A stretch of DNA of 20,000 bases from an uncultured virus (IMG/VR IMGVR_UViG_3300046170_000387) (lineage: Duplodnaviria; Heunggongvirae; Uroviricota; Caudoviricetes): IMG/VR virus record IMGVR_UViG_3300046170_000387; one strand, 5' to 3'. The position numbers were made by a program, and so were the translations under genes. This document shows, piece by piece, positions 1-19,165 of this stretch (its first letter is position 1; each line of letters opens with the position of its first letter). The notes beneath the pieces were generated by a model. That model was not told the DNA's origin and did not search any database. It worked only from the letters and a program-made list of their open reading frames with translations.

Positions 1-411
1 GTTGAAAGAATAGATAATCTTTTCTTAGTTCAAGTGTCTCATGATCTTGGATGTGTGGCAATAAATTCTCAAATGTAAAATCGAGATCATGTGAACTGTG
101 TGTAAAGCATACAGATATACCCTTCACTTAGTTCAGGATTGAAAGGCTGATACCAACCCTTTAATAGTAAAAGAGTTCCAAGGCTCTAATCCTTGTGATA
201 TCCAACTGTTCAGTTCCTCTAGGCGCTGAGCAGTTTTTATTATGTGCCTTTCATGTGCAACGGATTTTGGGATACATGTAAGTCTATCTTCATAGAAGAG
301 AGCATGTTTCCACATCAGTGTTCCATCTTTCAATATCAAACGAGAGGGATGAACCCGATCGTTAGAAGGAAGAGTTAACAGGCAGTCCGGTGCAATATGT
401 TTTGACATCAA
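1..411 (-). CDS. Peptidase M15-like (degenerate) protein, 3'-partial, with two apparent +1 frameshifts
   Basis: ORF 133..411. Removing one C from the runs at 157-159 and 120-122 extends the frame as ...FTIKGWYQPFNPELSEGISVCFTHSSHDLDFTFENLLPHIQDHETLELRKDYLFFQ past the window edge. W-x-x-A...RLTCIP...IIKTAQRLEEL...I-x-x-WY-x-P resembles cyanobacterial/phage peptidase M15A, but no S-x-H...A-x-D zinc motif is visible. Confidence 0.45.
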
Positions 412-1076
412 ATACTACCTTTGTTTTCTTCGTAGTATTCAAGATCTTTAATCCAACCATCTCCTGCATATTCACTGTAGATAACACGACCAAGATCTCT
501 AAAGCTGTCATAGAACAGAGAGACTTTGTCAATGTCAGTTAGTGCTTGACTAATTGGAGGACCATATACAATTAGATTCCAAGTAGAAGGTGATACAGGC
601 TCAAAGCCAGTAGCTGTGGCACGTAACTGCTTTACTCGTTTAAACGGAATACAGATTGGATAATCCCATACAACAGGTGCAGCCCGTAGTAGTTCTGAAG
701 CACTGCTGAATAAAACAAAACTATTAATATATCCATTGCGATATTCACTCAGTGTTTTGTTTAGCCAGATTCGGCAGTCACGTACAGCACCTTTGGGTGC
801 AACCCAAACATTTCCATGCCAATGCTCTTGCAAAGGATTGACTTCAATGCTCGGTACGGATGTTGCATCAACTAGAACCTGTTGAACAGGATCTGAAGTT
901 GGATCAAAGTCAATGCTGCCCATGACGGCACGCGCTCTATCAATGATCTGAGGTGTCGGATATAACGGTAGCTTTAGACCTTTAGCGGCAAGCTTATCCG
1001 ATAAATTCTTCTGCGAGCGCTCTAAGGCCCTCTTGGCACCGACCTGCTTCGACTGCAAATGTTCTTGTTCCAGCAT
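408..1076 (-). CDS. Phage DNA N6-adenine methyltransferase-like protein (Dam-like fold, catalytic NPPY replaced by APKG)
   Basis: LYPTPQIIDRARAVMGSIDFDPTS...NPLQEHWHGNVWVAPKG follows the phage Dam pattern WYTP..II..AR.V.G.IDLDPAS...GL...W.G.VW.NPPY; the downstream ICIPFKRVK matches the usual ICF...RI segment. Confidence 0.7.
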   Translation of the reverse strand: MLEQEHLQSKQVGAKRALERSQKNLSDKLAAKGLKLPLYPTPQIIDRARAVMGSIDFDPTSDPVQQVLVDATSVPSIEVNPLQEHWHGNVWVAPKGAVRDCRIWLNKTLSEYRNGYINSFVLFSSASELLRAAPVVWDYPICIPFKRVKQLRATATGFEPVSPSTWNLIVYGPPISQALTDIDKVSLFYDSFRDLGRVIYSEYAGDGWIKDLEYYEENKGSI

Positions 1077-1419
1077 CGCTAATTAATGTTATTAATACAT
1101 TTTTTGACCAGTCATTGGTTTCGATTTCTTCGGAGCAGATCACGTAGAAAGTCAACGATATCCTCGTCTTCTTCTCGCTCAGCTGTTTTTCAAATCGAAA
1201 CTCAATTGATTCAGGCCACATGAACGTCGTAGAGTCATTCATAAGGTTGATGACTAATGAGCCAGTTCCCCTTTTTTCAACACCAGTAAGTGCAATATTA
1301 ATCAGGTCAGAAAGAATCAACTCTGCAGTAGCCATGAGGAACTCCTGCTCTTGTTTCTTTTCAGGACCAAATTTCTTGGATGAAATTAGTTGTTGAATAA
1401 GATCGCTTCGTCTTGACAT
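994..1419 (-). CDS. Hypothetical protein (internal stretch probably mis-framed by three compensating +1 insertions)
   Basis: 141-aa ORF with ATG and AT-rich upstream region. Removing one base from the runs at 1198-1200, 1186-1190 and 1132-1133 turns RFEKQLSEKKTRISLTFYVICS into DLKTAEREEDEDIVDFLRDLL, a natural-looking amphipathic helix. Confidence 0.7.
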   Translation of the reverse strand: MSRRSDLIQQLISSKKFGPEKKQEQEFLMATAELILSDLINIALTGVEKRGTGSLVINLMNDSTTFMWPESIEFRFEKQLSEKKTRISLTFYVICSEEIETNDWSKNVLITLISDAGTRTFAVEAGRCQEGLRALAEEFIG

Positions 1420-1451
1420 ATTCTTATGACTCTTTACTAAGGATAGATTAA

Positions 1452-2249
1452 TTAAAAGTTTTCTGTGGTATTTTCCTCGTCATCTTTAAAAAGACTATTA
1501 GGATTTTGATTGGATTGACTTGGGTGACGACCACTCAGCATATCTTCTACAACAGCTTGGAATCTGTCAGAGAAATTTGAGTCAGGTTCGAACAAAAGAT
1601 TTGATCGATCTTCAAGCTCTTGTTGAGTAATCAGCTTCTCTTGTTCTTTCATTGCTTCTTCTAGGTTGTATTCAGCAATCTGCTGCTTAAGCGTATGTAG
1701 CTCACAAGCAAGCTCAAAACTTTCTAGATAAGAATCACAGTCAACAAAAACCCCAATTTTTTGGGGTATTAGATGAAAGGGATTACAGCAATACTTGTTA
1801 CCACAGGTTGACTTAACACCAGTGTATCCAAGGTCTCCCCATGTAAACCACATTGCTACACGTTGAGGGTGATGCTGTGTACTTGTACTAATACCTGGCC
1901 GCCTCCAGGGGAATTGAGGCATGCCATTGGTTTTACACCTGTAGCCAAGCCATTCCCAGCAGTCATCAGGTTGACCTATATCAACCTTTGACCAAAACTT
2001 TAAAGCACGTTTACGTTCTTTTTTGAGAAGTCGATCGATATTAAAAGAGATACGTCCTTCTCTTGCAGCAGCTACACAGCGCACACAAGCTTGATGACTG
2101 TCATAGCGCATTGATGATGAGCTAAACCTGCCTATCGAGTGACCGCTATAGAGACAGAGTGCTCCCTCTTCTGCGGTGTTAGACATATTCAAATTTCTAC
2201 GACCGTAGGTGTGGCCACCTACTTTCTTACTGGGCTGTGACTCAGGCAT
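1452..2249 (-). CDS. HNH-fold protein with N-terminal zinc ribbon and C-terminal coiled coil (catalytic His apparently absent)
   Basis: FWSKVD...DDCWEW.G...RVAMWFTWG...VKSTCGNKYCCNPFHL is the phage HNH_3-type pattern; N-terminal C...GH...RY....CVRC; acidic helical C-terminus. Confidence 0.75.
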   Translation of the reverse strand: MPESQPSKKVGGHTYGRRNLNMSNTAEEGALCLYSGHSIGRFSSSSMRYDSHQACVRCVAAAREGRISFNIDRLLKKERKRALKFWSKVDIGQPDDCWEWLGYRCKTNGMPQFPWRRPGISTSTQHHPQRVAMWFTWGDLGYTGVKSTCGNKYCCNPFHLIPQKIGVFVDCDSYLESFELACELHTLKQQIAEYNLEEAMKEQEKLITQQELEDRSNLLFEPDSNFSDRFQAVVEDMLSGRHPSQSNQNPNSLFKDDEENTTENF

Positions 2250-2523: not shown

Positions 2524-4771
2524 TTAGAAGTCGTTAAGAATGTGATCTTCTAATAGAGGATCATTCTTAGGACGTTGCCACACACGTACAGACTTGGACT
2601 TACCCGTTGCCGAATCTTTCCTGCTTGTTACTAGTCTTCTCCAACCCATAGATTGAAGAACATCAGCTACACGTCTGCCTTCTCTACGACCTTGATTACG
2701 AGGATCTAATTCGAGAGCATTTGTAAGTACATCTGCTGCAGTTACTTCCTCTCGGATAGCTACATAAGATGCGATCTTATCTAACCAAGGGTCTGGATCA
2801 CCAAACTCTTGGATGTATTCATATATAGCAGCGATCTCACCACTTGTAAACTCATAGCCTTCATTGTTGCGATACGCAGCTACTGCAGCTGCCCACAAAC
2901 TATCTCGTACATTGCACAGCTCTTTCCATGGAATTTGGAAGCCAGCTCCAAGTTCTAGAGGGACAAATCGACGGTTGCCTGTGCTATCAACTAAGAATTG
3001 ATTACGGTTCGTAGTACCAATAAATACAAAGCGCCTAGGTAGCTTGCTAGGTAGAGATGCGTATGGATAGCGCACTTCATCTACGCGAGTAGTAACTAGG
3101 TTTTTAAAGTTCTCAATGTTCCTTGTATTGAAGTAGTTATCAATTTCTGGCAGCTCTAGCAGCCATGCCACGTGCAATCGATATTGCTCACGCATGAGTG
3201 TATCTAAAGGTGTTGTGATCTCAGAGAACAGTGCAGGAGGCACAAGGCTTCTGGAGAACATTGATTTACCAGCACCTTGAGGGCCTACCAGGATTGGCAG
3301 CCAAGACATGGTGCAGCCTGGGTCATATGCCCTAGCTACAGCACCAATCATCATGCGCTGCATTGCAGTAGTAGAAATGTTGTGCTTATTTCCTAGGAAG
3401 ATTTCACCAATGTTGTCCCAGTCAGGATGTGGGTCAGCTGTGTCAGCACATTTGTCTAGGTAAGTCCGAATAGGACAATACCTATTTTGATTGGCGGCAT
3501 ATTGAATAGCTGATTTAATTCGCTGCTCAGGTATAAAGACTCCGTTTTCACAGGCAAGCTTAGTAGTCATAAGATCAAGATCTTGACCTTGGAGAAATAC
3601 AGCCTCACCACTTGGTTGCGTGTACTCAATAGCTCCTGTAAGTTCATTCTTTCGTAGGTTGAGAAGAATCTCTTTTACCTTTTGAACATCTGATTCACGT
3701 TGCTTAGCTAAGTCATCGTCATTCTTTTTTGGACGACCACGCTTTTTGACTTGGTTTGAATCAGGTAAAGGCTCTGGAACAATGGATTCATCTGAATTAT
3801 TCATTGATTTGCTACTACTCCTTGTTTGTAAATGATCTTGAACTATCTGATCAATATCTTGTACTGGATCAAATTCTGTATATCCAGCAGCTGAACCTAC
3901 TGCACCAAATCTAAGATGTGGTGGTAGCTTATGTGCCCAGTCTGCATCTTGCTTTTTAGCAAGTGAATACAGTGTAGTTGGGACCTGAAAAGTTTCCGAG
4001 ACCACGCCATTTAAATGGTTGTATATTTTCAGGTTTTTCACCGTGATGGCCTTTTAATACCCAGTTAACCCATGCGTCGAATACAGGCTCACCAATGCCT
4101 GCACAAGCTGCCATGACTGGTACATAGTAAGTTTCATACTGTCCATCATCAGAAGGCGTTAGAAAGCTTTCTAGTAACCACTGGCATCGTTGTACGTCTA
4201 CTTCAGTTACATCTGAGGAAACAAAGTTTGATGACTCGTCATATGCAATGTCATTGAGAAGAAACTCTGGGACTGGTTCAAATTCTGCATTCTTTTGAAT
4301 GTCAGCATTGGTGTTACCAAACCAAAGTCGTTCAGGCTTCTGCCCACAGTTGTCAGCAAGCTCATTGAGCTCTAGCTCTGCAAGTAAACGATTGACGATT
4401 AGCCAATAAGCACCCTTGTGTTCAGCAGTAGATAGAAGCTCTTTGCCAAGCGGGAACAAGGCTCTAAACCTGTGCTCACTTTCTGTATGACTAGCTGACG
4501 TGTAAGTGGCTACACACCATTGACGTGCAGTATCACTTGACCAAAATCTGGCAAGAGTAGTGTCGCCATCAAAGTCAATGACGACCATGTTCGAGCCCGC
4601 CGAGTTATCAGCTTTTCGATGACGAGCTTTGAAGTGTGTGGCACACCATCCATAGCCGTTTTGAACCCAACCTAGTAGCCAATCAATATCTTCTAATATA
4701 TTTTGCCAATCGCGTGCAGGTTTACTCTGCTTGTTCTTGCAACTTTTGTGTACTGCAATCCGTAGTTTCAT
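2524..4771 (-). CDS. Primase-helicase fusion: AEP-like primase + PriCT-like domain + VirE/VapE P-loop ATPase (one apparent frameshift at about 3981)
   Basis: ORF 3956..4771 has VVIDFDG, YTSASH, HRFRALF and ERLWFG. ORF 2524..4041 has Walker A GPQGAGKS, LLELPEID, RYPY and FIGTTNR...DSTGNRRF. Deleting one G at 3980-3982 joins them as GLGNFSGPTTLYSLAKK. An AT-hook-like KKRGRPKK sits in the linker. Confidence 0.88.
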
Positions 4772-5495
4772 TATCTATTTCATGGAATTGTTGACAACGT
4801 TTCAGGAAACGTGATTCATGCAACGCAAGTTGATCTCCATCGATGAAGATGCCTTGAGTTGTCTCAGGTGTTGAGACAATAATCAAGGCAACATCACAGA
4901 GAAAACCAGTTCTCTCGTTTAGTGCATATCTGTATGCAGCCATTTGCTGCGCACACTTCGTATATTTTCGGTAACCACCGAATCCAATTCGATCTCCACG
5001 ATCAGGAAAAGAAGCGCAGTAAGGAGCATTGCTAGTTTTGAAGTCAGCAATAACTCGTACTCCACCGATTTCACCAATGAGGTCAGGACATCCAGCATAT
5101 TTGTGCTCTGTACTCCAGACAAATGCGACTTCTCTATCATCACTTCTTAGATGGTTCCAATCGGGACGTAAAGGACGCTCCGACCAATGAATTGTATCAA
5201 ACCAATCAAGGTAAGTAGACATTCCATTCCAGAAATCTAGATAATCTTCAGGAACTCCTGGATCTAAACCACGGAGATAATTTTCACAACCTAAGTGAAT
5301 AGCCGAGCCGCGAGTTGATGCTGCCTCTAGCGCACCCGGATTATTCTTTTGCCAGTTGCGAAGACCAGCTTTGGACTTTTCGCTTTCAGTAGCCGAGAGA
5401 ACAGTAGTTACACTCGGCATATAAATGCCGGAGCATAGATACTTTCTATGTCCGGCGGAAGTTTGGATTCTGTATGGAAGATCAGAAGTCACCAT
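4722..5495 (-). CDS. PD-(D/E)XK (Cas4/RecB-like) phage exonuclease
   Basis: PSVTTVLS, RGSAIH...ENYL, YAGCPDLIG, IADFKTS and QQMAAY motifs. Confidence 0.88.
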   Translation of the reverse strand: MVTSDLPYRIQTSAGHRKYLCSGIYMPSVTTVLSATESEKSKAGLRNWQKNNPGALEAASTRGSAIHLGCENYLRGLDPGVPEDYLDFWNGMSTYLDWFDTIHWSERPLRPDWNHLRSDDREVAFVWSTEHKYAGCPDLIGEIGGVRVIADFKTSNAPYCASFPDRGDRIGFGGYRKYTKCAQQMAAYRYALNERTGFLCDVALIIVSTPETTQGIFIDGDQLALHESRFLKRCQQFHEIDNETTDCSTQKLQEQAE

Positions 5496-5829
5496 CTACA
5501 CCCTGTTGCGTTTGATAATTTGAGCTGTAATCTGTAGTTTCGGTTTGTGCTTGAAAGAGTTGGTATAACTCTCCTACAGCCTGACCAACAGCTTCTACAA
5601 CTTGACCAGTTGCAAAAACTTGTTGGGACAGCTGTGACACTTCTTGGCGCAAAGCAATCGTATGATCCATTAGGGAAGGAGCCCGTGTAGGAACTTGATT
5701 ACTTTGTACACCACTATTGACAGCAGTATTAGCTGTATTAGTAGGAACAATGGCATTCGCTTGTGTAAGGATATCGGCTAACCGTGCCTGCATTTCAGGA
5801 GGCAGGTTTTGAAGATTTGGGTTTGTCAT
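5482..5829 (-). CDS. Hypothetical Q/N/T-rich coiled-coil protein
   Basis: 115-aa ORF coupled to both neighbours; heptad-like central segment; ends DGDF. Confidence 0.75.
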   Translation of the reverse strand: MTNPNLQNLPPEMQARLADILTQANAIVPTNTANTAVNSGVQSNQVPTRAPSLMDHTIALRQEVSQLSQQVFATGQVVEAVGQAVGELYQLFQAQTETTDYSSNYQTQQGVDGDF

Positions 5830-6569
5830 TAGAATTCAGATTCTTCTTCTTGTTTTTTAGATGTTGCTTTAGTCGGAAGCACCGTGCTTCCTCGTTTGTC
5901 CACCCCACCAGCAGGGATACCTTTTTCGTCAGTTTGCTTCCCGTCAAAAGGATCCTTTCCTTCAAAGAAATTTGGAAGCCAGATCGTGTTCTTGGTATCG
6001 GCCCATTCTTTTGCAATTTTATCTGGTACTTTACGTACCTTCGGGAGAATGCTATATGAAGTTTCAAGGCCAGCACCTTTACGTGTGATCTTGATTGAGA
6101 AATTAGCCAGGCCATCTTCAGTCCAGGTATAGTCTTCTATTTCCTGTAGGATTTCAGTGAGTTGGTCACGCAAGGATTTCTGTTCGATAAACAGAACTTC
6201 CATTCGACTGCGAGATGCAGAAGTACCGACCCAAGCTAAAAACCGACGTGGCTTGACGTAGGAGCCATCAATTTTTGGTCGGTCGGGCTTAGACCAGTCG
6301 GTTTCACGAGCAATGTCGTCAGGGCTACCAGGATGAGTACGAGTGACAACGTAACCGTTGAACTTAAGTTCACCGTCATTTCCTCGTGCTTCGGATGCAT
6401 ATTGCCATCCCATGATTGCGTGTCCTGTTTCGTAGCATCCGAGCAAGCGGAACTCTTCACTTTCTCCATCTTTGAGTGAGCTAGGTTTCCAATATGGTTG
6501 GGGTTCTTTAGTTTCAATTCTGTCTTTAGGTGCCTCTAGAAGTTCAGGAGGCAATACTTGTAGGGTCAT
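5829..6569 (-). CDS. Putative phage single-stranded DNA-binding protein (gp32-like type)
   Basis: EEFRLLG...KPRRFLAWV...EVLFIEQKSL...FSIKITRKGAGLETSYSILP pattern, acidic C-terminus (QEEESEF), located in the replication module; likely start is the ATG at 6569 (MTLQVLPP). Confidence 0.65.
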   Translation of the reverse strand: MTLQVLPPELLEAPKDRIETKEPQPYWKPSSLKDGESEEFRLLGCYETGHAIMGWQYASEARGNDGELKFNGYVVTRTHPGSPDDIARETDWSKPDRPKIDGSYVKPRRFLAWVGTSASRSRMEVLFIEQKSLRDQLTEILQEIEDYTWTEDGLANFSIKITRKGAGLETSYSILPKVRKVPDKIAKEWADTKNTIWLPNFFEGKDPFDGKQTDEKGIPAGGVDKRGSTVLPTKATSKKQEEESEF

Positions 6570-11256: not shown

Positions 11257-11484
11257 TTATTTTTCTCTAAGTGTGATGCGTCCACGACCTAGGTCATATG
11301 GACTTAGTTCAACATGCACACGATCACCAACAAGAAGTTGGATTTTCCGTGTAATTAATTTACCAGAAGCTCTACATAAGCACTGATGTTCTGCTGGTTC
11401 ATCCAATTCAACATTGAAATAACCGTTGCCACTTTCTTTGAAGATTACACCTTTAGCTTCAACAATATTCGTTTTTTTGCTCAT
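11257..11484 (-). CDS. infA: Translation initiation factor IF-1
   Basis: 75-aa S1/OB-fold: VEAKGVI...NGYFNVEL...SGKL...IQLLVGDRVHVELSPYDLGRGRITLR. Confidence 0.93.
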   Translation of the reverse strand: MSKKTNIVEAKGVIFKESGNGYFNVELDEPAEHQCLCRASGKLITRKIQLLVGDRVHVELSPYDLGRGRITLREK

Positions 11485-13488: not shown

Positions 13489-14027
13489 GAAGAGGTGGTT
13501 TCATCTGATTCTTCTAATTCATCTTCAAGTTCTTCATCATCATATTGACCCTCATTGTAGTTAGATACAATTTGGTCAATCTGTTCATAGACACTTGAGT
13601 AATCAAATTTATAAGTAACTAATTCAGCTAGATATGGAATTTCATCTTCTTCGAAACCATCAAAGTTTTCTTGAAGATATTCTTCTACGTCTACAAAAAC
13701 TAGTGAGTCAAGATCTTCTTCGTCTTGGTCATCATCATCATCTTCTTCTTCTTCTTCTTCCTCTTCTTCTGTATGAGAAGAATCCTCTAAAACAACATCT
13801 GGATCAGATTCTGCGTATTCGAAAACCCAATCATCGACCTGATCATGAATTGGATCATAATCAAAATCTTCGTCATTTTGACATAGATGCCAAACAGATT
13901 GTCTTTGCTTGGCTGTCAATGTTGGGAATTCTTTAATTAAATATTCATTTACATCAATAGTTAGAAACGGATCATATGTATCATCCGCTTCTAATAGCAA
14001 TGCACGGCGTTCAGCTGCAGCTCCCAT
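13485..14027 (-). CDS. Extremely acidic protein with an internally duplicated ~50-aa domain and poly-E/D linker
   Basis: Two copies of (I/V)DV.EYL...F...FDY..(I/V).(D/E)Q(V/I)D..V..Y separated by EEEEEEEEEDDDDDQDEED. Confidence 0.8.
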   Translation of the reverse strand: MGAAAERRALLLEADDTYDPFLTIDVNEYLIKEFPTLTAKQRQSVWHLCQNDEDFDYDPIHDQVDDWVFEYAESDPDVVLEDSSHTEEEEEEEEEDDDDDQDEEDLDSLVFVDVEEYLQENFDGFEEDEIPYLAELVTYKFDYSSVYEQIDQIVSNYNEGQYDDEELEDELEESDETTSS

Positions 14028-14668
14028 CAGAAGTCACCTCCAACTTTTTCTTCAACTTGAACATCAACGGCTTGAACAGCAGTGTCTGGTTCAATTGCAG
14101 TGTTCAACGTATCTTTCAATGTAGCAACAATGCTAGACATAGATAACTCATATGATTCCCATGCTTTCTCCTTGCGGTCAGCATTGAGAATTGCATACAA
14201 TTCTTTGTCAGAATAAACTTCACCACATCGAATAGAAGCAAAGATAGGCTTGCGTCCCATGTTGCCTCGATAGGAATCAAGGTTGAATGACTCAGTGATC
14301 ATTCCATTTTGGAACAATCCATACAAACCTGAGATGACACACATAGACCACCAAGTCTGGATACCTGAAGTAACCAAAATCTTGTTGCCGCTATGTAACT
14401 CAAGAATGACATTGAGCTTTGTGGCATTTTCTGTGCCAATTCCAGTAACAATATCGATATCGACAAGCTTGACATTTGCAAGACGAGTCAAAGGCTTTCC
14501 AGCTTTTGTCATCAAGGCAGCAGGCTTTTCATCGTTACCGATGTAGTGAAACAGTACAGCTTCGCTCTCTTTTACTACTCCGATGCCGATCATCATGTTG
14601 ATCTCAGGTGCTTCTCCACCTGATACGAGATCAGCAACAATTGCGGAACTATCTACGAGCATGGTCAT
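14027..14668 (-). CDS. Hypothetical protein (~213 aa)
   Basis: Long ORF; likely start is the ATG at 14668 (MTMLVDSS); TGATG overlap with the next gene. Confidence 0.8.
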   Translation of the reverse strand: MTMLVDSSAIVADLVSGGEAPEINMMIGIGVVKESEAVLFHYIGNDEKPAALMTKAGKPLTRLANVKLVDIDIVTGIGTENATKLNVILELHSGNKILVTSGIQTWWSMCVISGLYGLFQNGMITESFNLDSYRGNMGRKPIFASIRCGEVYSDKELYAILNADRKEKAWESYELSMSSIVATLKDTLNTAIEPDTAVQAVDVQVEEKVGGDF

Positions 14669-15172: not shown

Positions 15173-16312
15173 TTATTTGTTCCTACGACGTGCGCGACGA
15201 CGTGCTTGCCTCTTTTGGACTCTAGCTCTTGTTCTCATTGCAGCCATACGAACAGCTCTACGTACTACTCGACGTCTAGCTTTTCCAGTCACACCAGCTT
15301 TTTTAGCTTTCCGTCTTGCCATTCGTTTCGCTGTAGTCCTTGCCCGCTTAACAGCTACTCTCCGGCTTGCTGCCGCTGCTGCTTTTCTTGTAGCCCTTTT
15401 AGTGGCTTTAGACGAAGCACCAGATTTTTTAGAAATCCTTGCGGCTCGTTTTTTTGCCCGCATAACAGCTACTTTCCGTCTTGCCATATTTGCTGCTTTC
15501 CTTGCAGCTGATTTACGGTCTTTAGCTGATGCTCCAGATGCTTTTGCAGCTTTTCGTGCCGCACGTTTTGCTCTCTGAACTTTTGCCATCAACCTCGTCA
15601 TCATTATTTTACGACGAATAGCTTTTTTCGCTTTTCCTGTAGTAGCAGACTTTAATGCGTTTTTGAGCATCATGATTTTTCTGCGAATTTGTCGCATCAT
15701 CATGTTTTTATTAGCTGTAGTGCTACTGCTTCCACCTGAGGAACCACTTTTATTATCTTTGGGTTTAGTGCTACTGCTTCCACCTGAGGAACCACTTTTA
15801 TTATCTTTGGGTTTAGTACTAGTCCCTCCACCTGAGGAACCACTTTTATTATCTTTGGGTTTAGTACTAGTCCCTCCACCTGAGGAACCACTTCCATTTG
15901 AATTACCTGGCTTTTGATCAGCTGGTGTATTTTTCCCACCGGTAGTTCCTTTACCGCCACCAGTTCCTTTACTTCCACCAGTTCCCTTACCGCCACCAGT
16001 TCCCTTACCGCCACCAGTTCCTTTACCATCACCGGTTCCTTTACCACCACCGGTTCCTTTACCACCACCGGTTCCTTTGCCACCACCGGTTCCTTTGCCA
16101 CCACCGGAGTTGCCTGTACCTGCAGCACCCATCATCATCATCATTGATGAAGTGTTTCCTGAGCTAGAAGACTTATTATTAGAAGTGTTTCCTGAGCTTT
16201 TTGAACTCGAACTAGAATTACCTACATTACTAATAGTAATGCTATTTTTATTTACAGTACCCGTTTTAGCGACTCCACGCATACCACGGGTATTTTCTGC
16301 TGCTGCTGACAT
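15173..16312 (-). CDS. Very basic low-complexity protein: Gly/Ser/Lys repeats plus Arg/Lys/Ala-rich histone-H1/protamine-like C-terminal half
   Basis: 379-aa uninterrupted ORF; repeats vary at synonymous positions, as expected for this frame being translated; no aromatic or Cys residues; very few acidic residues; followed by a terminator. Confidence 0.85.
   Translation of the reverse strand: MSAAAENTRGMRGVAKTGTVNKNSITISNVGNSSSSSKSSGNTSNNKSSSSGNTSSMMMMMGAAGTGNSGGGKGTGGGKGTGGGKGTGGGKGTGDGKGTGGGKGTGGGKGTGGSKGTGGGKGTTGGKNTPADQKPGNSNGSGSSGGGTSTKPKDNKSGSSGGGTSTKPKDNKSGSSGGSSSTKPKDNKSGSSGGSSSTTANKNMMMRQIRRKIMMLKNALKSATTGKAKKAIRRKIMMTRLMAKVQRAKRAARKAAKASGASAKDRKSAARKAANMARRKVAVMRAKKRAARISKKSGASSKATKRATRKAAAAASRRVAVKRARTTAKRMARRKAKKAGVTGKARRRVVRRAVRMAAMRTRARVQKRQARRRARRRNK
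15719..15892 (-). repeat. 48-bp coding tandem repeat, about 3.6 copies (SGSSGG[G/S][T/S]STKPKDNK)
   Basis: ccacctgaggaaccacttttattatctttgggtttagt recurs with a 48-nt period. Confidence 0.95.
15926..16105 (-). repeat. 18-bp coding tandem repeat, about 10 copies (GGGKGT)
   Basis: gttcc(t/c)tt(a/g)cc(a/g)ccacc(a/g) units encoding GGGKGT x4, GDGKGT, GGGKGT x2, GGSKGT, GGGKGT, TGGKNT. Confidence 0.95.
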
Positions 16313-18081: not shown

Positions 18082-19165
18082 TTAACCAATAGATGGTGCA
18101 GTTAAGGCTACAGATGTAGTCTCAGCAGCTGCCAAGTCTAACGGAAAATTATGAGCATTTCTTTCGTGAATTACTTCGAGTCCAAGTCCAGCGCGATTAA
18201 GAATATCGCCCCAGGTATTGATAACACGCTTGTTGCTATCAAGGATTGACTGGTTGAAGTTGAAGCCGTTCAAGGTTGAACGCCATGGTTGACACGCCAA
18301 GGGCAGTGAACCAAATACCAACAACAGGCCAGCTTGCTAAGAAGAAGTGCAGTGAACGGGAGTTGTTGAATGAGGCGTATTGGAAAATCAGGCGACCGAA
18401 GTAGCCATGTGCTGCCACGATGTTGTACGTCTCTTCTTCTTGACCGAATTTATAGCCATAGTTCTGTGACACTTGCTCTGTGGTTTCACGCACGAGAGAT
18501 GATGTAACAAGAGAACCATGCATAGCAGAAAATAAACTTCCACCGAAGACACCAGCCACACCAAGCATGTGGAACGGATGCATGAGGATATTATGCTCTG
18601 CCTGGAACACCAACATATAGTTGAATGTACCTGAGATGCCCAAAGGCATTGCGTCAGAGAAGGATCCTTGTCCAAAGGGATAGACAAGAAACACGGCAGA
18701 TGCTGCTGCTACAGGTGCGCTATATGCGACGAAGATCCATGGGCGCATACCTAACCGGTAGCTAAGTTCCCATTCTCGTCCCATGTAAGCGTAGATACCG
18801 ATAAGGAAGTGAAAGACGACGAGTTGGAAAGGACCGCCGTTGTAGAGCCATTCGTCCAACGAAGCCGCTTCCCAGATTGGGTAAAAATGCAGTCCGATTG
18901 CGTTTGAAGACGGGACAACTGCTCCTGAAATAATGTTATTTCCGTAAAGGAGCGATCCAGCAACTGGTTCACGAATGCCATCGATATCAACAGGGGGTGC
19001 GCCAACGAAGGCGATAATGAAACAAATAGTCGCTGCGAGGAGCGTAGGGATCATGAGGATTCCAAACCAACCGACATACAGACGGTTGTTGGTACTCGTA
19101 ACCCACTGACAAAACTCTTCCCAGTTACTCTTAGCGCCGGAGCGCTGCATAACAGTTGAAGCCAT
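18082..19165 (-). CDS. psbA: Photosystem II reaction centre protein D1 (one apparent +1 frameshift at about 18273; no intron)
   Basis: [53 protein letters not shown]; deleting one base at 18272-18275 restores [13 protein letters not shown] and a 360-aa product. Confidence 0.99.

Follow-up and report, generated by a model that had tools for sequence, protein, structure and literature searches.

Conserved pseudoenzymes related to HNH nucleases, Dam methyltransferases and M15 peptidases in the replication region of S-EIV1-related cyanophages

Three inactivated enzyme homologs in a marine cyanophage

We analyzed a stretch of 20,000 nucleotides from the uncultured virus IMGVR_UViG_3300046170_000387 (the whole stretch is hereafter called the window), a marine cyanophage related to S-EIV1. 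A preliminary description had reported three minus-strand genes directly after the primase-helicase gene and a 78-amino-acid open reading frame (ORF), each resembling an enzyme gene that has lost its catalytic residues, and the genes do lie there. Their predicted products, here called HNH*, Dam* and M15*, are inherited and selected pseudoenzymes, as indicated by their enzyme ancestry, the loss of their canonical catalytic residues, purifying selection and fixed gene neighborhoods. The three proteins probably act as binding proteins, and the reading that we prefer, with a probability of about 0.5, is that they are non-catalytic DNA-binding accessory factors for phage replication or transcription. 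Together with the orphan gene X, they occupy the following positions:

1452..2249, minus strand: HNH*, a His-Me finger protein of the His-Cys box type (265 amino acids), recognized by its match to phrog_826 and by alignment with annotated phage HNH proteins
994..1419, minus strand: X, a 140-amino-acid orphan and constant neighbor of Dam* in three clades; its frame in the window is locally shifted between about 1198 and 1133
408..1076, minus strand: Dam*, a homolog of PF05869-type N6-adenine methyltransferases (222 amino acids), its start lying within X (83-base overlap)
408 to beyond base 1, minus strand: M15*, a homolog of peptidase M15A (Hedgehog/DD-peptidase fold), 137 amino acids in intact relatives and extending 8 bases past the window edge

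Related loci fall into three clades: clade A, to which the window belongs (131 loci, not independent of one another), clade B, comprising S-EIV1 and its relatives (47 loci), and clade C (64 loci), whose Dam* is at most 36% identical to that of the window. The loss of catalytic residues, proposed from the window alone, extends to orthologs of all three distant clades.

Fold assignments and active sites

The proposed HNH-like fold is borne out by the match of the window protein to PHROG 826 (phrog_826; E-value 3.9e-11), and a beta-beta-alpha core with a zinc loop is predicted from its sequence. Passages of PMC5714182 define the His-Me finger active site by a catalytic His together with an Asn or His on the helix. 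In the window HNH*, Ser occupies the position of this general-base His and the helix position holds neither Asn nor His, while the zinc ligands are kept. The general-base position is Ser or Thr in 75/75 clade A sequences, Arg in 7/7 of clade B and a residue other than His in 32/44 of clade C, and the metal-binding helix Asn, present at position +9 in 3/3 controls, is replaced by Phe in each of the eight most frequent strings of clade A. Both zinc sites persist (in 69 and 70 of 70 sequences in clade A, 4 and 4 of 4 in clade B, 40 and 45 of 45 in clade C), and the C..C.NP.H zinc loop occurs in all 119 HNH* sequences. HNH* thus has the W..V..CW.W and C..C.NP.H motifs of the PHROG 826 endonucleases but a helix without their nuclease residues, and its own DNA binding is a prediction. 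For a His-Me finger that is dead but retains DNA binding there is a precedent, the Smad MH1 domain, in which, as in HNH*, the catalytic His is missing (passages of PMC5714182); HNH* differs from both the endonucleases and Smad MH1 in being a phage core gene and in carrying an extra N-terminal C/H/C/C site.

The clade A HNH* has an acidic tail, mostly with Phe or Tyr at its end. Several minus-strand genes of the window end likewise in acidic residues and a final Phe, namely the 78-amino-acid ORF (S78), HNH*, the primase, a 115-amino-acid ORF, an SSB-like protein and a 225-amino-acid ORF (2249-2260, 1452-1465, 2524-2540, 5482-5495, 5829-5850 and 14027-14040). Such tails recall the polymerase-binding tails of phage T7 (gp2.5, gp4).

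Assignment of Dam* to the Dam-like methyltransferases also stands. The window protein is unmatched in Pfam and PHROG scans; it aligns with an annotated phage methyltransferase (best tblastn E-value 3e-8), its S-EIV1 ortholog matches phrog_111 (PHROG 111) at 1e-18, a profile of the lineage recovers PF05869 members at 1e-16 to 1e-30, and the homologs L129, L131 and L209, aligned over the whole protein, exceed the PF05869 cut-off. The homology with PF05869 spans the catalytic domain. The window Dam* retains motif I (DxDP) and has APKG in place of the NPPY of motif IV, so that the catalytic motif (D/N/S)PP(Y/F/W) is absent. Across the lineage, motif I reads DD in 154 of the 156 sequences with residues there and ED in two. 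The motif-IV Asn, present in 76/76 outside homologs, occurs in none of 156 lineage sequences: its position holds Ala (49) or Ser (27) in clade A (2 gaps), Phe (27) in clade B (3 gaps) and Gly (34), Ala (15), Ser (2) or Phe (2) in clade C, and no aromatic residue stands at position 4 of the motif in clades A and B. That the replacements differ from clade to clade suggests that the proteins were freed from catalysis and not that a single site was rebuilt.

Compared with the PF05869 "Dam" phage-type N6-adenine methyltransferases (PHROG 111; for example those of Vibrio phage 1.185.O and Anabaena phage A-1(L)), Dam* has the same motif order, DxDP motif and length, but differs in the missing motif-IV Asn and aromatic, in its N-terminal helix, in its fixed partner X, in the lack of any Pfam match for the window protein, and in a C-terminal extension in two clades. 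This extension measures 25 residues in clade A, is similar in clade C, and is absent from all 20 distinct clade B ends, which stop 3 residues past G-R/K. In a tree of 51 chosen Dam* rows, clades A and C are sisters (100/100), and clade B and four outside homologs lacking the aromatic group with them without further resolution (93/95). GATC sites are neither notably avoided nor enriched.

No family was found for X in Pfam, PHROG, the PDB or the ESM Atlas. The ATG start of Dam* is kept inside X in 81/81 X genes, and the X Asp codon that it overlaps is GAT in all 81, compared with 512 of the 836 Asp codons elsewhere. When longer proteins containing X were sought, one fusion with the upstream 164-amino-acid gene of clade B (P0303) came up, and L069 has X and Dam* in one ORF next to another frameshift; either may be an error. 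Prediction of a Dam*-X complex gave a score of 0.00 and hence no verdict, a fold search with the Dam* model was uninformative (best Z 5.2), and a PDB sequence search returned nothing usable for HNH*, X, Dam* or M15*.

Before modeling, M15* was the least certain of the three fold calls; it is now confirmed. The model of the intact ortholog from the relative L001 (predicted local distance difference test score, pLDDT, 94.7) has as its best solved structure the zinc DD-peptidase 1LBU (Z 9.9, root-mean-square deviation (rmsd) 6.4, 108 residues aligned), with Hedgehog, VanY-type and phage endolysin domains next, and its best viral match in BFVD is a peptidase M15A (TM 0.67, rmsd 2.6, E-value 9e-4). 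Similarly, hhalign matched a two-clade M15* profile to a set of ten canonical M15 domains with a probability of 90% (E-value 1.5e-6); the clade A profile alone reached 14%, and against only three canonical domains nothing was obtained (probability <1%). Foldseek gave no PDB match at an E-value of 0.001, with Hedgehog domains at the top of its list, no Pfam or PHROG family matched any of 43 members, and the ESM Atlas gave no usable match. A clade A profile search of 1.84 billion representatives found 64 proteins, those aligned being members of the lineage. The modeled M15* thus has the Hedgehog/DD-peptidase fold.

The zinc ligands of this fold, His-x6-Asp and a C-terminal His, are missing from M15*. 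In the window protein, Leu and Cys stand at the first His and Asp positions and the C-terminal strand has no His. Among orthologs the first position is L/Y/F/M (77 sequences) or W/F (55), the Asp position is never Asp (Y/C/N/F/E/T or L/R/V/I), and the ligand motif occurs in 0/79 and 0/56 sequences (0/135 overall; three sequences failed the position pattern in this tally). Clade A M15* has an invariant His/Glu/Cys set near its C-terminus. M15* shares its fold, with xYRP and the GxAxD strand register, with the peptidase M15A and M15_3 endolysins (PF08291; 1LBU; Hedgehog N-domain), but differs from them in the absent ligands, a shortened loop, an identity of 7-13% and a position among replication genes. 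True endolysins are encoded elsewhere in the lineage genomes, and canonical M15 domains occur in three of five clade C genomes. In clade C, L335-L337 encode endolysins with a canonical C-terminal M15 domain; in that of L337 the loop is shortened as in M15* and the ligands are kept.

As the preliminary description had argued, the HNH* and Dam* substitutions are not single-base errors. They recur in error-free orthologs, some of them 100% identical in protein, and because L001-L003 encode identical Dam* and identical HNH* proteins, the catalytic-site differences cannot be ascribed to sequencing. The frameshifts of M15*, in contrast, are errors of the window sequence: extra bases lie in the runs 120-122 and 157-159 of M15*, and at about 1197-1198 and 1133 in X, and are absent from L001 and L003, and bases 120 and 157 are also missing from contigs of two other runs.

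Gene order and selection

In clade A the gene order is S78, HNH*, X, Dam*, M15*, a DUF3310 gene, a deaminase-like gene and the polymerase. The expected conservation of synteny was found: all 128 tallied loci, which are not independent, are collinear, and the arrangement is therefore not a matter of chance. When M15* instead of Dam* served to select the loci, the genes were strictly adjacent in 33 of 38, and the other five kept this order but had a start that had been extended mechanically. Packing from S78 to M15* resembles that of an operon, with an overlap of 1 base between S78 and HNH*, a gap of 32 between HNH* and X, and overlaps of 83 between X and Dam* and 1 between Dam* and M15*. RNA-library contigs of relatives (runs X2, X3 and X8) span these genes, which does not in itself demonstrate transcription or co-transcription.

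In clade B, X adjoins Dam* in 43 of 47 loci and HNH* lies far away; M15* was not detected there, either in five genomes, searched without a positive control, or in the sequence tally. In S-EIV1 (L081:21491-22726) the X-Dam* pair stands after the structural region. In clade B it is preceded by genes for a conserved 164-amino-acid protein of unknown function and a helix-turn-helix protein, both of them undetected in the loci of clades A and C, and followed by one for a dCTP deaminase. The clade C order is deaminase, S78, HNH*, variable genes (usually about 1-3.5 kb), X, Dam* and M15*; in two loci the trio stays together but M15* lies between X and Dam*, and in one of these HNH* is 9 kb off on the other strand. 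A scan from the divergent L334 matched only itself. The three enzyme-like genes therefore do not make up the single module of the preliminary description: the X-Dam*-M15* cluster is kept in clades A and C, HNH* is far away in clade B and usually separated in clade C, and M15* goes undetected in B. The genes form two units, X-Dam*, adjacent in all clades and joined by M15* in two, and a separate HNH*.

Only 20 of the 129 ORFs of G005, a complete clade A genome, were matched in the clade B genome G008 (a comparison of marine with freshwater), and HNH*, X and Dam* belong to this set. Ratios of nonsynonymous to synonymous substitution (dN/dS) were computed as median pairwise values over unsaturated pairs from 26 dereplicated clade A loci (of 43) with all eight genes, loci that were found via Dam* or M15*, which may inflate the apparent conservation of these two. 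The medians are 0.051 for HNH*, 0.144 for X, 0.069 for Dam* and 0.210 for M15*, alongside 0.103 for the deaminase-like gene, 0.065 for the primase and 0.062 for the polymerase, and the highest single-pair value is 0.41. In the same loci mean identity is 83% for Dam* and 81% for the polymerase. HNH*, Dam* and M15* are under strong purifying selection, and the proposal that their dN/dS is not near 1 is upheld.

A dCMP-deaminase homolog lies about 570 bases past window base 1 in relatives (L002:7483-8049). In clade A its zinc ligands are gone, HAE or CxxC occurring in 0/61 sequences; in clade C both motifs are present in 33 of 41 sequences and neither in 8. The zinc site appears, from these sequences, to have been lost twice, as a fourth and younger case. 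Unlike the deaminase, neither Dam* nor M15* was found in an active form within the lineage.

Proposed role and alternative explanations

We propose that the pseudoenzymes serve the DNA transactions of the phage through binding and not catalysis. HNH* would be a two-zinc DNA-binding protein, by analogy with Smad MH1; the clade A protein may also attach to the replisome by its acidic tail with a terminal aromatic, by analogy with T7 gp2.5 and gp4. X and Dam* would form a core complex in which Dam* is a DNA-binding methyltransferase scaffold, probably still able to bind S-adenosylmethionine (SAM), and in clades A and C M15* would join as a further subunit, perhaps anchored by the C-terminal extension of Dam*. 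Such an assembly would most likely serve to control phage DNA replication or a transcription switch; no RNA polymerase gene was seen in these phages.

Several observations weigh against this proposal. Loss of the canonical residues is complete for Dam* (156/156) and M15* (135/135) but not for HNH*, whose general-base His is kept in 12 of 44 clade C sequences. A loop Tyr (Y153), nearly invariant in 19 clade A HNH* sequences and absent from clades B and C, recalls the substitute nucleophile of PacI, and the acidic tail is confined to clade A. Clade B has a different primase-helicase family and yet keeps HNH*, X and Dam*, which makes the helicase less likely as a partner. In Dam*, 27 of 76 clade A sequences have at the motif-IV position a Ser, the residue of N4-methylcytosine (m4C) methyltransferases, and the closest outside homologs already lack the motif-IV aromatic (NPPG, NAPG, NPPC), so this branch tolerates odd motifs. 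The Dam* model, built from 19 sequences, is poor (pLDDT 43) and lends no support to an intact SAM pocket, and the correlation between the Dam* tail and M15* amounts to one evolutionary contrast because clades A and C are sisters.

An alternative is new chemistry, with Dam* still a SAM-dependent transferase acting on another substrate, or with its site completed in trans by X, and with HNH* and M15* using rebuilt sites. The almost invariant motif I, a Dam* as conserved as the polymerase, the presence of X wherever the Asn is lost, neighbors in nucleotide metabolism (the dCTP deaminase of clade B, the DUF3310 and deaminase-like genes of clade A) and the His/Glu/Cys set of clade A M15* all speak for this possibility. 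We nevertheless consider it unlikely: the clades have no motif-IV replacement residue in common, the His/Glu/Cys set is not kept in clade C, and a site would have to be rebuilt in each of three unrelated folds. Anti-defense decoys, inactive copies that protect phage DNA against the restriction, nuclease or deaminase defenses of the host or poison those defenses, were among the examples given in the preliminary description and are the less likely of them. Each of the three folds matches a class of defense enzyme, and the repeated loss of deaminase zinc ligands, in clade A and in 8/41 clade C sequences, is what repeated recruitment predicts; however, HNH*, X and Dam* are core genes shared by marine and freshwater clades that evolve as slowly as replication genes, and typical counter-defense genes are unlike slow core genes. 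Some hexamer palindromes are, moreover, still fully avoided in G005, G008 and S-EIV1, and we regard decoys as improbable.

A role as structural or assembly proteins of the virion would have a precedent in inactivated poxvirus enzymes (10.1101/2022.11.22.517515), and the X-Dam* pair of S-EIV1 does follow the structural region. In clades A and C, however, the genes are surrounded by those for replication, and in G005 some 40 kb separate them from terminase and capsid; a virion role seems quite improbable to us. That the three are ordinary active enzymes, decaying pseudogenes or products of sequence error is very improbable indeed: the window does contain many single-base insertions and Pfam recognizes none of its three proteins, but the substitutions are common to intact orthologs and whole clades, the folds are confirmed, and error and decay are refuted by those intact orthologs together with a dN/dS far below 1. 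Set against these alternatives, binding proteins for replication or transcription remain our preferred reading. As a speculative and rather doubtful extension, we also entertain a heteromeric assembly of X, Dam* and M15*, built from dead enzymes throughout the lineage, that binds DNA, senses SAM and, together with HNH*, links phage DNA replication to late transcription by the RNA polymerase of the host. Regulation of this kind would be new among phages, and the lineage would keep recruiting further enzymes in a similar manner, such as the dCMP deaminase, lost twice.

The virus, its relatives and neighboring genes

Two further features precede HNH*:

2524..4771, minus strand: primase-helicase (VirE-type ATPase), the upstream context, split by a frameshift in the window and a single 748-amino-acid ORF in L002
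2249..2485, minus strand: S78, a 78-amino-acid ORF located ahead of HNH* in clades A and C, with no family found

The translations of the window, mostly from the minus strand, include psbA, talC and an hli-like gene together with ribonucleotide reductase, thyX, an exonuclease and the primase-helicase. G005, a close relative with a complete genome of 80,569 bases, further encodes capsid and terminase proteins, an integrase, endolysins, a sigma factor and a split DNA polymerase. Uncultured marine cyanophages related to BAC21E04, described in the parts seen of 10.1101/325100 as closest to S-EIV1, have in common psbA, talC, ribonucleotide reductase, exonuclease, integrase, a split DNA polymerase and a size of ~80 kb, and on gene content alone we infer that the window probably belongs among them; those parts are silent on HNH*, X, Dam* and M15*. 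An hli-like match below the cut-off was obtained in two of five clade C genomes. The sigma factor of G005 is RpoD-like (L137:13481-14428; phrog_351, E-value 1e-80); sigma-70 was found in 0/5 clade C genomes, and the factor was rejected as a general partner on that account.

The window is an error-prone assembly with many single-base insertions. Further extra bases or frameshifts, absent in other runs or relatives, lie at 3956-4041, 10090, 10420, 14772, 14819 and 18271-18334 (primase-helicase, ribonucleotide reductase, psbA). Among hexamer palindromes, GGCGCC is fully absent from G005 and GACGTC from G008 and S-EIV1 (KJ410740), which suggests restriction avoidance. A 75-amino-acid ORF at 11257-11484, whose G005 ortholog matches phrog_30201 (function unknown), resembles translation initiation factor IF-1. 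At 15173-16312 lies a 379-amino-acid low-complexity ORF with Gly/Lys/Thr repeats followed by a strongly Arg/Lys/Ala-rich C-terminal part, a shorter version of which is present in G005. Contigs of this phage lineage (L196-L203, L261) have been binned into unrelated bacterial and archaeal metagenome-assembled genomes, probably through contamination.

Known systems and significance

Inactivated enzymes with viral roles are already known from poxviruses: in orthopoxviruses, core proteins including the replication factor A20 derive from enzymes with disrupted catalytic sites (10.1101/2022.11.22.517515). The genes described here similarly encode viral core proteins descended from inactivated enzymes, but in a tailed phage, with different folds and with three or four cases in one gene block. 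The preliminary description knew of no comparable system, and the literature searched, largely without subscription papers and including passages of PMC5714182 and PMC6211444, likewise holds no account of HNH*, X, Dam* and M15*.

Annotators would label these genes methylase, endonuclease or endolysin, or miss them, and none of these labels is likely to be right. HNH*, X and Dam* are three of the ~20 genes common across an abundant cyanophage lineage and have no assigned role, and because the cultured S-EIV1 carries all three, their function is testable. Taken together, the three clades offer a graded series, from NPPY through NPPG to APKG, FPPN or GAPT, and with a deaminase that is intact or dead, that lets one study how viruses turn enzymes into non-enzymes.

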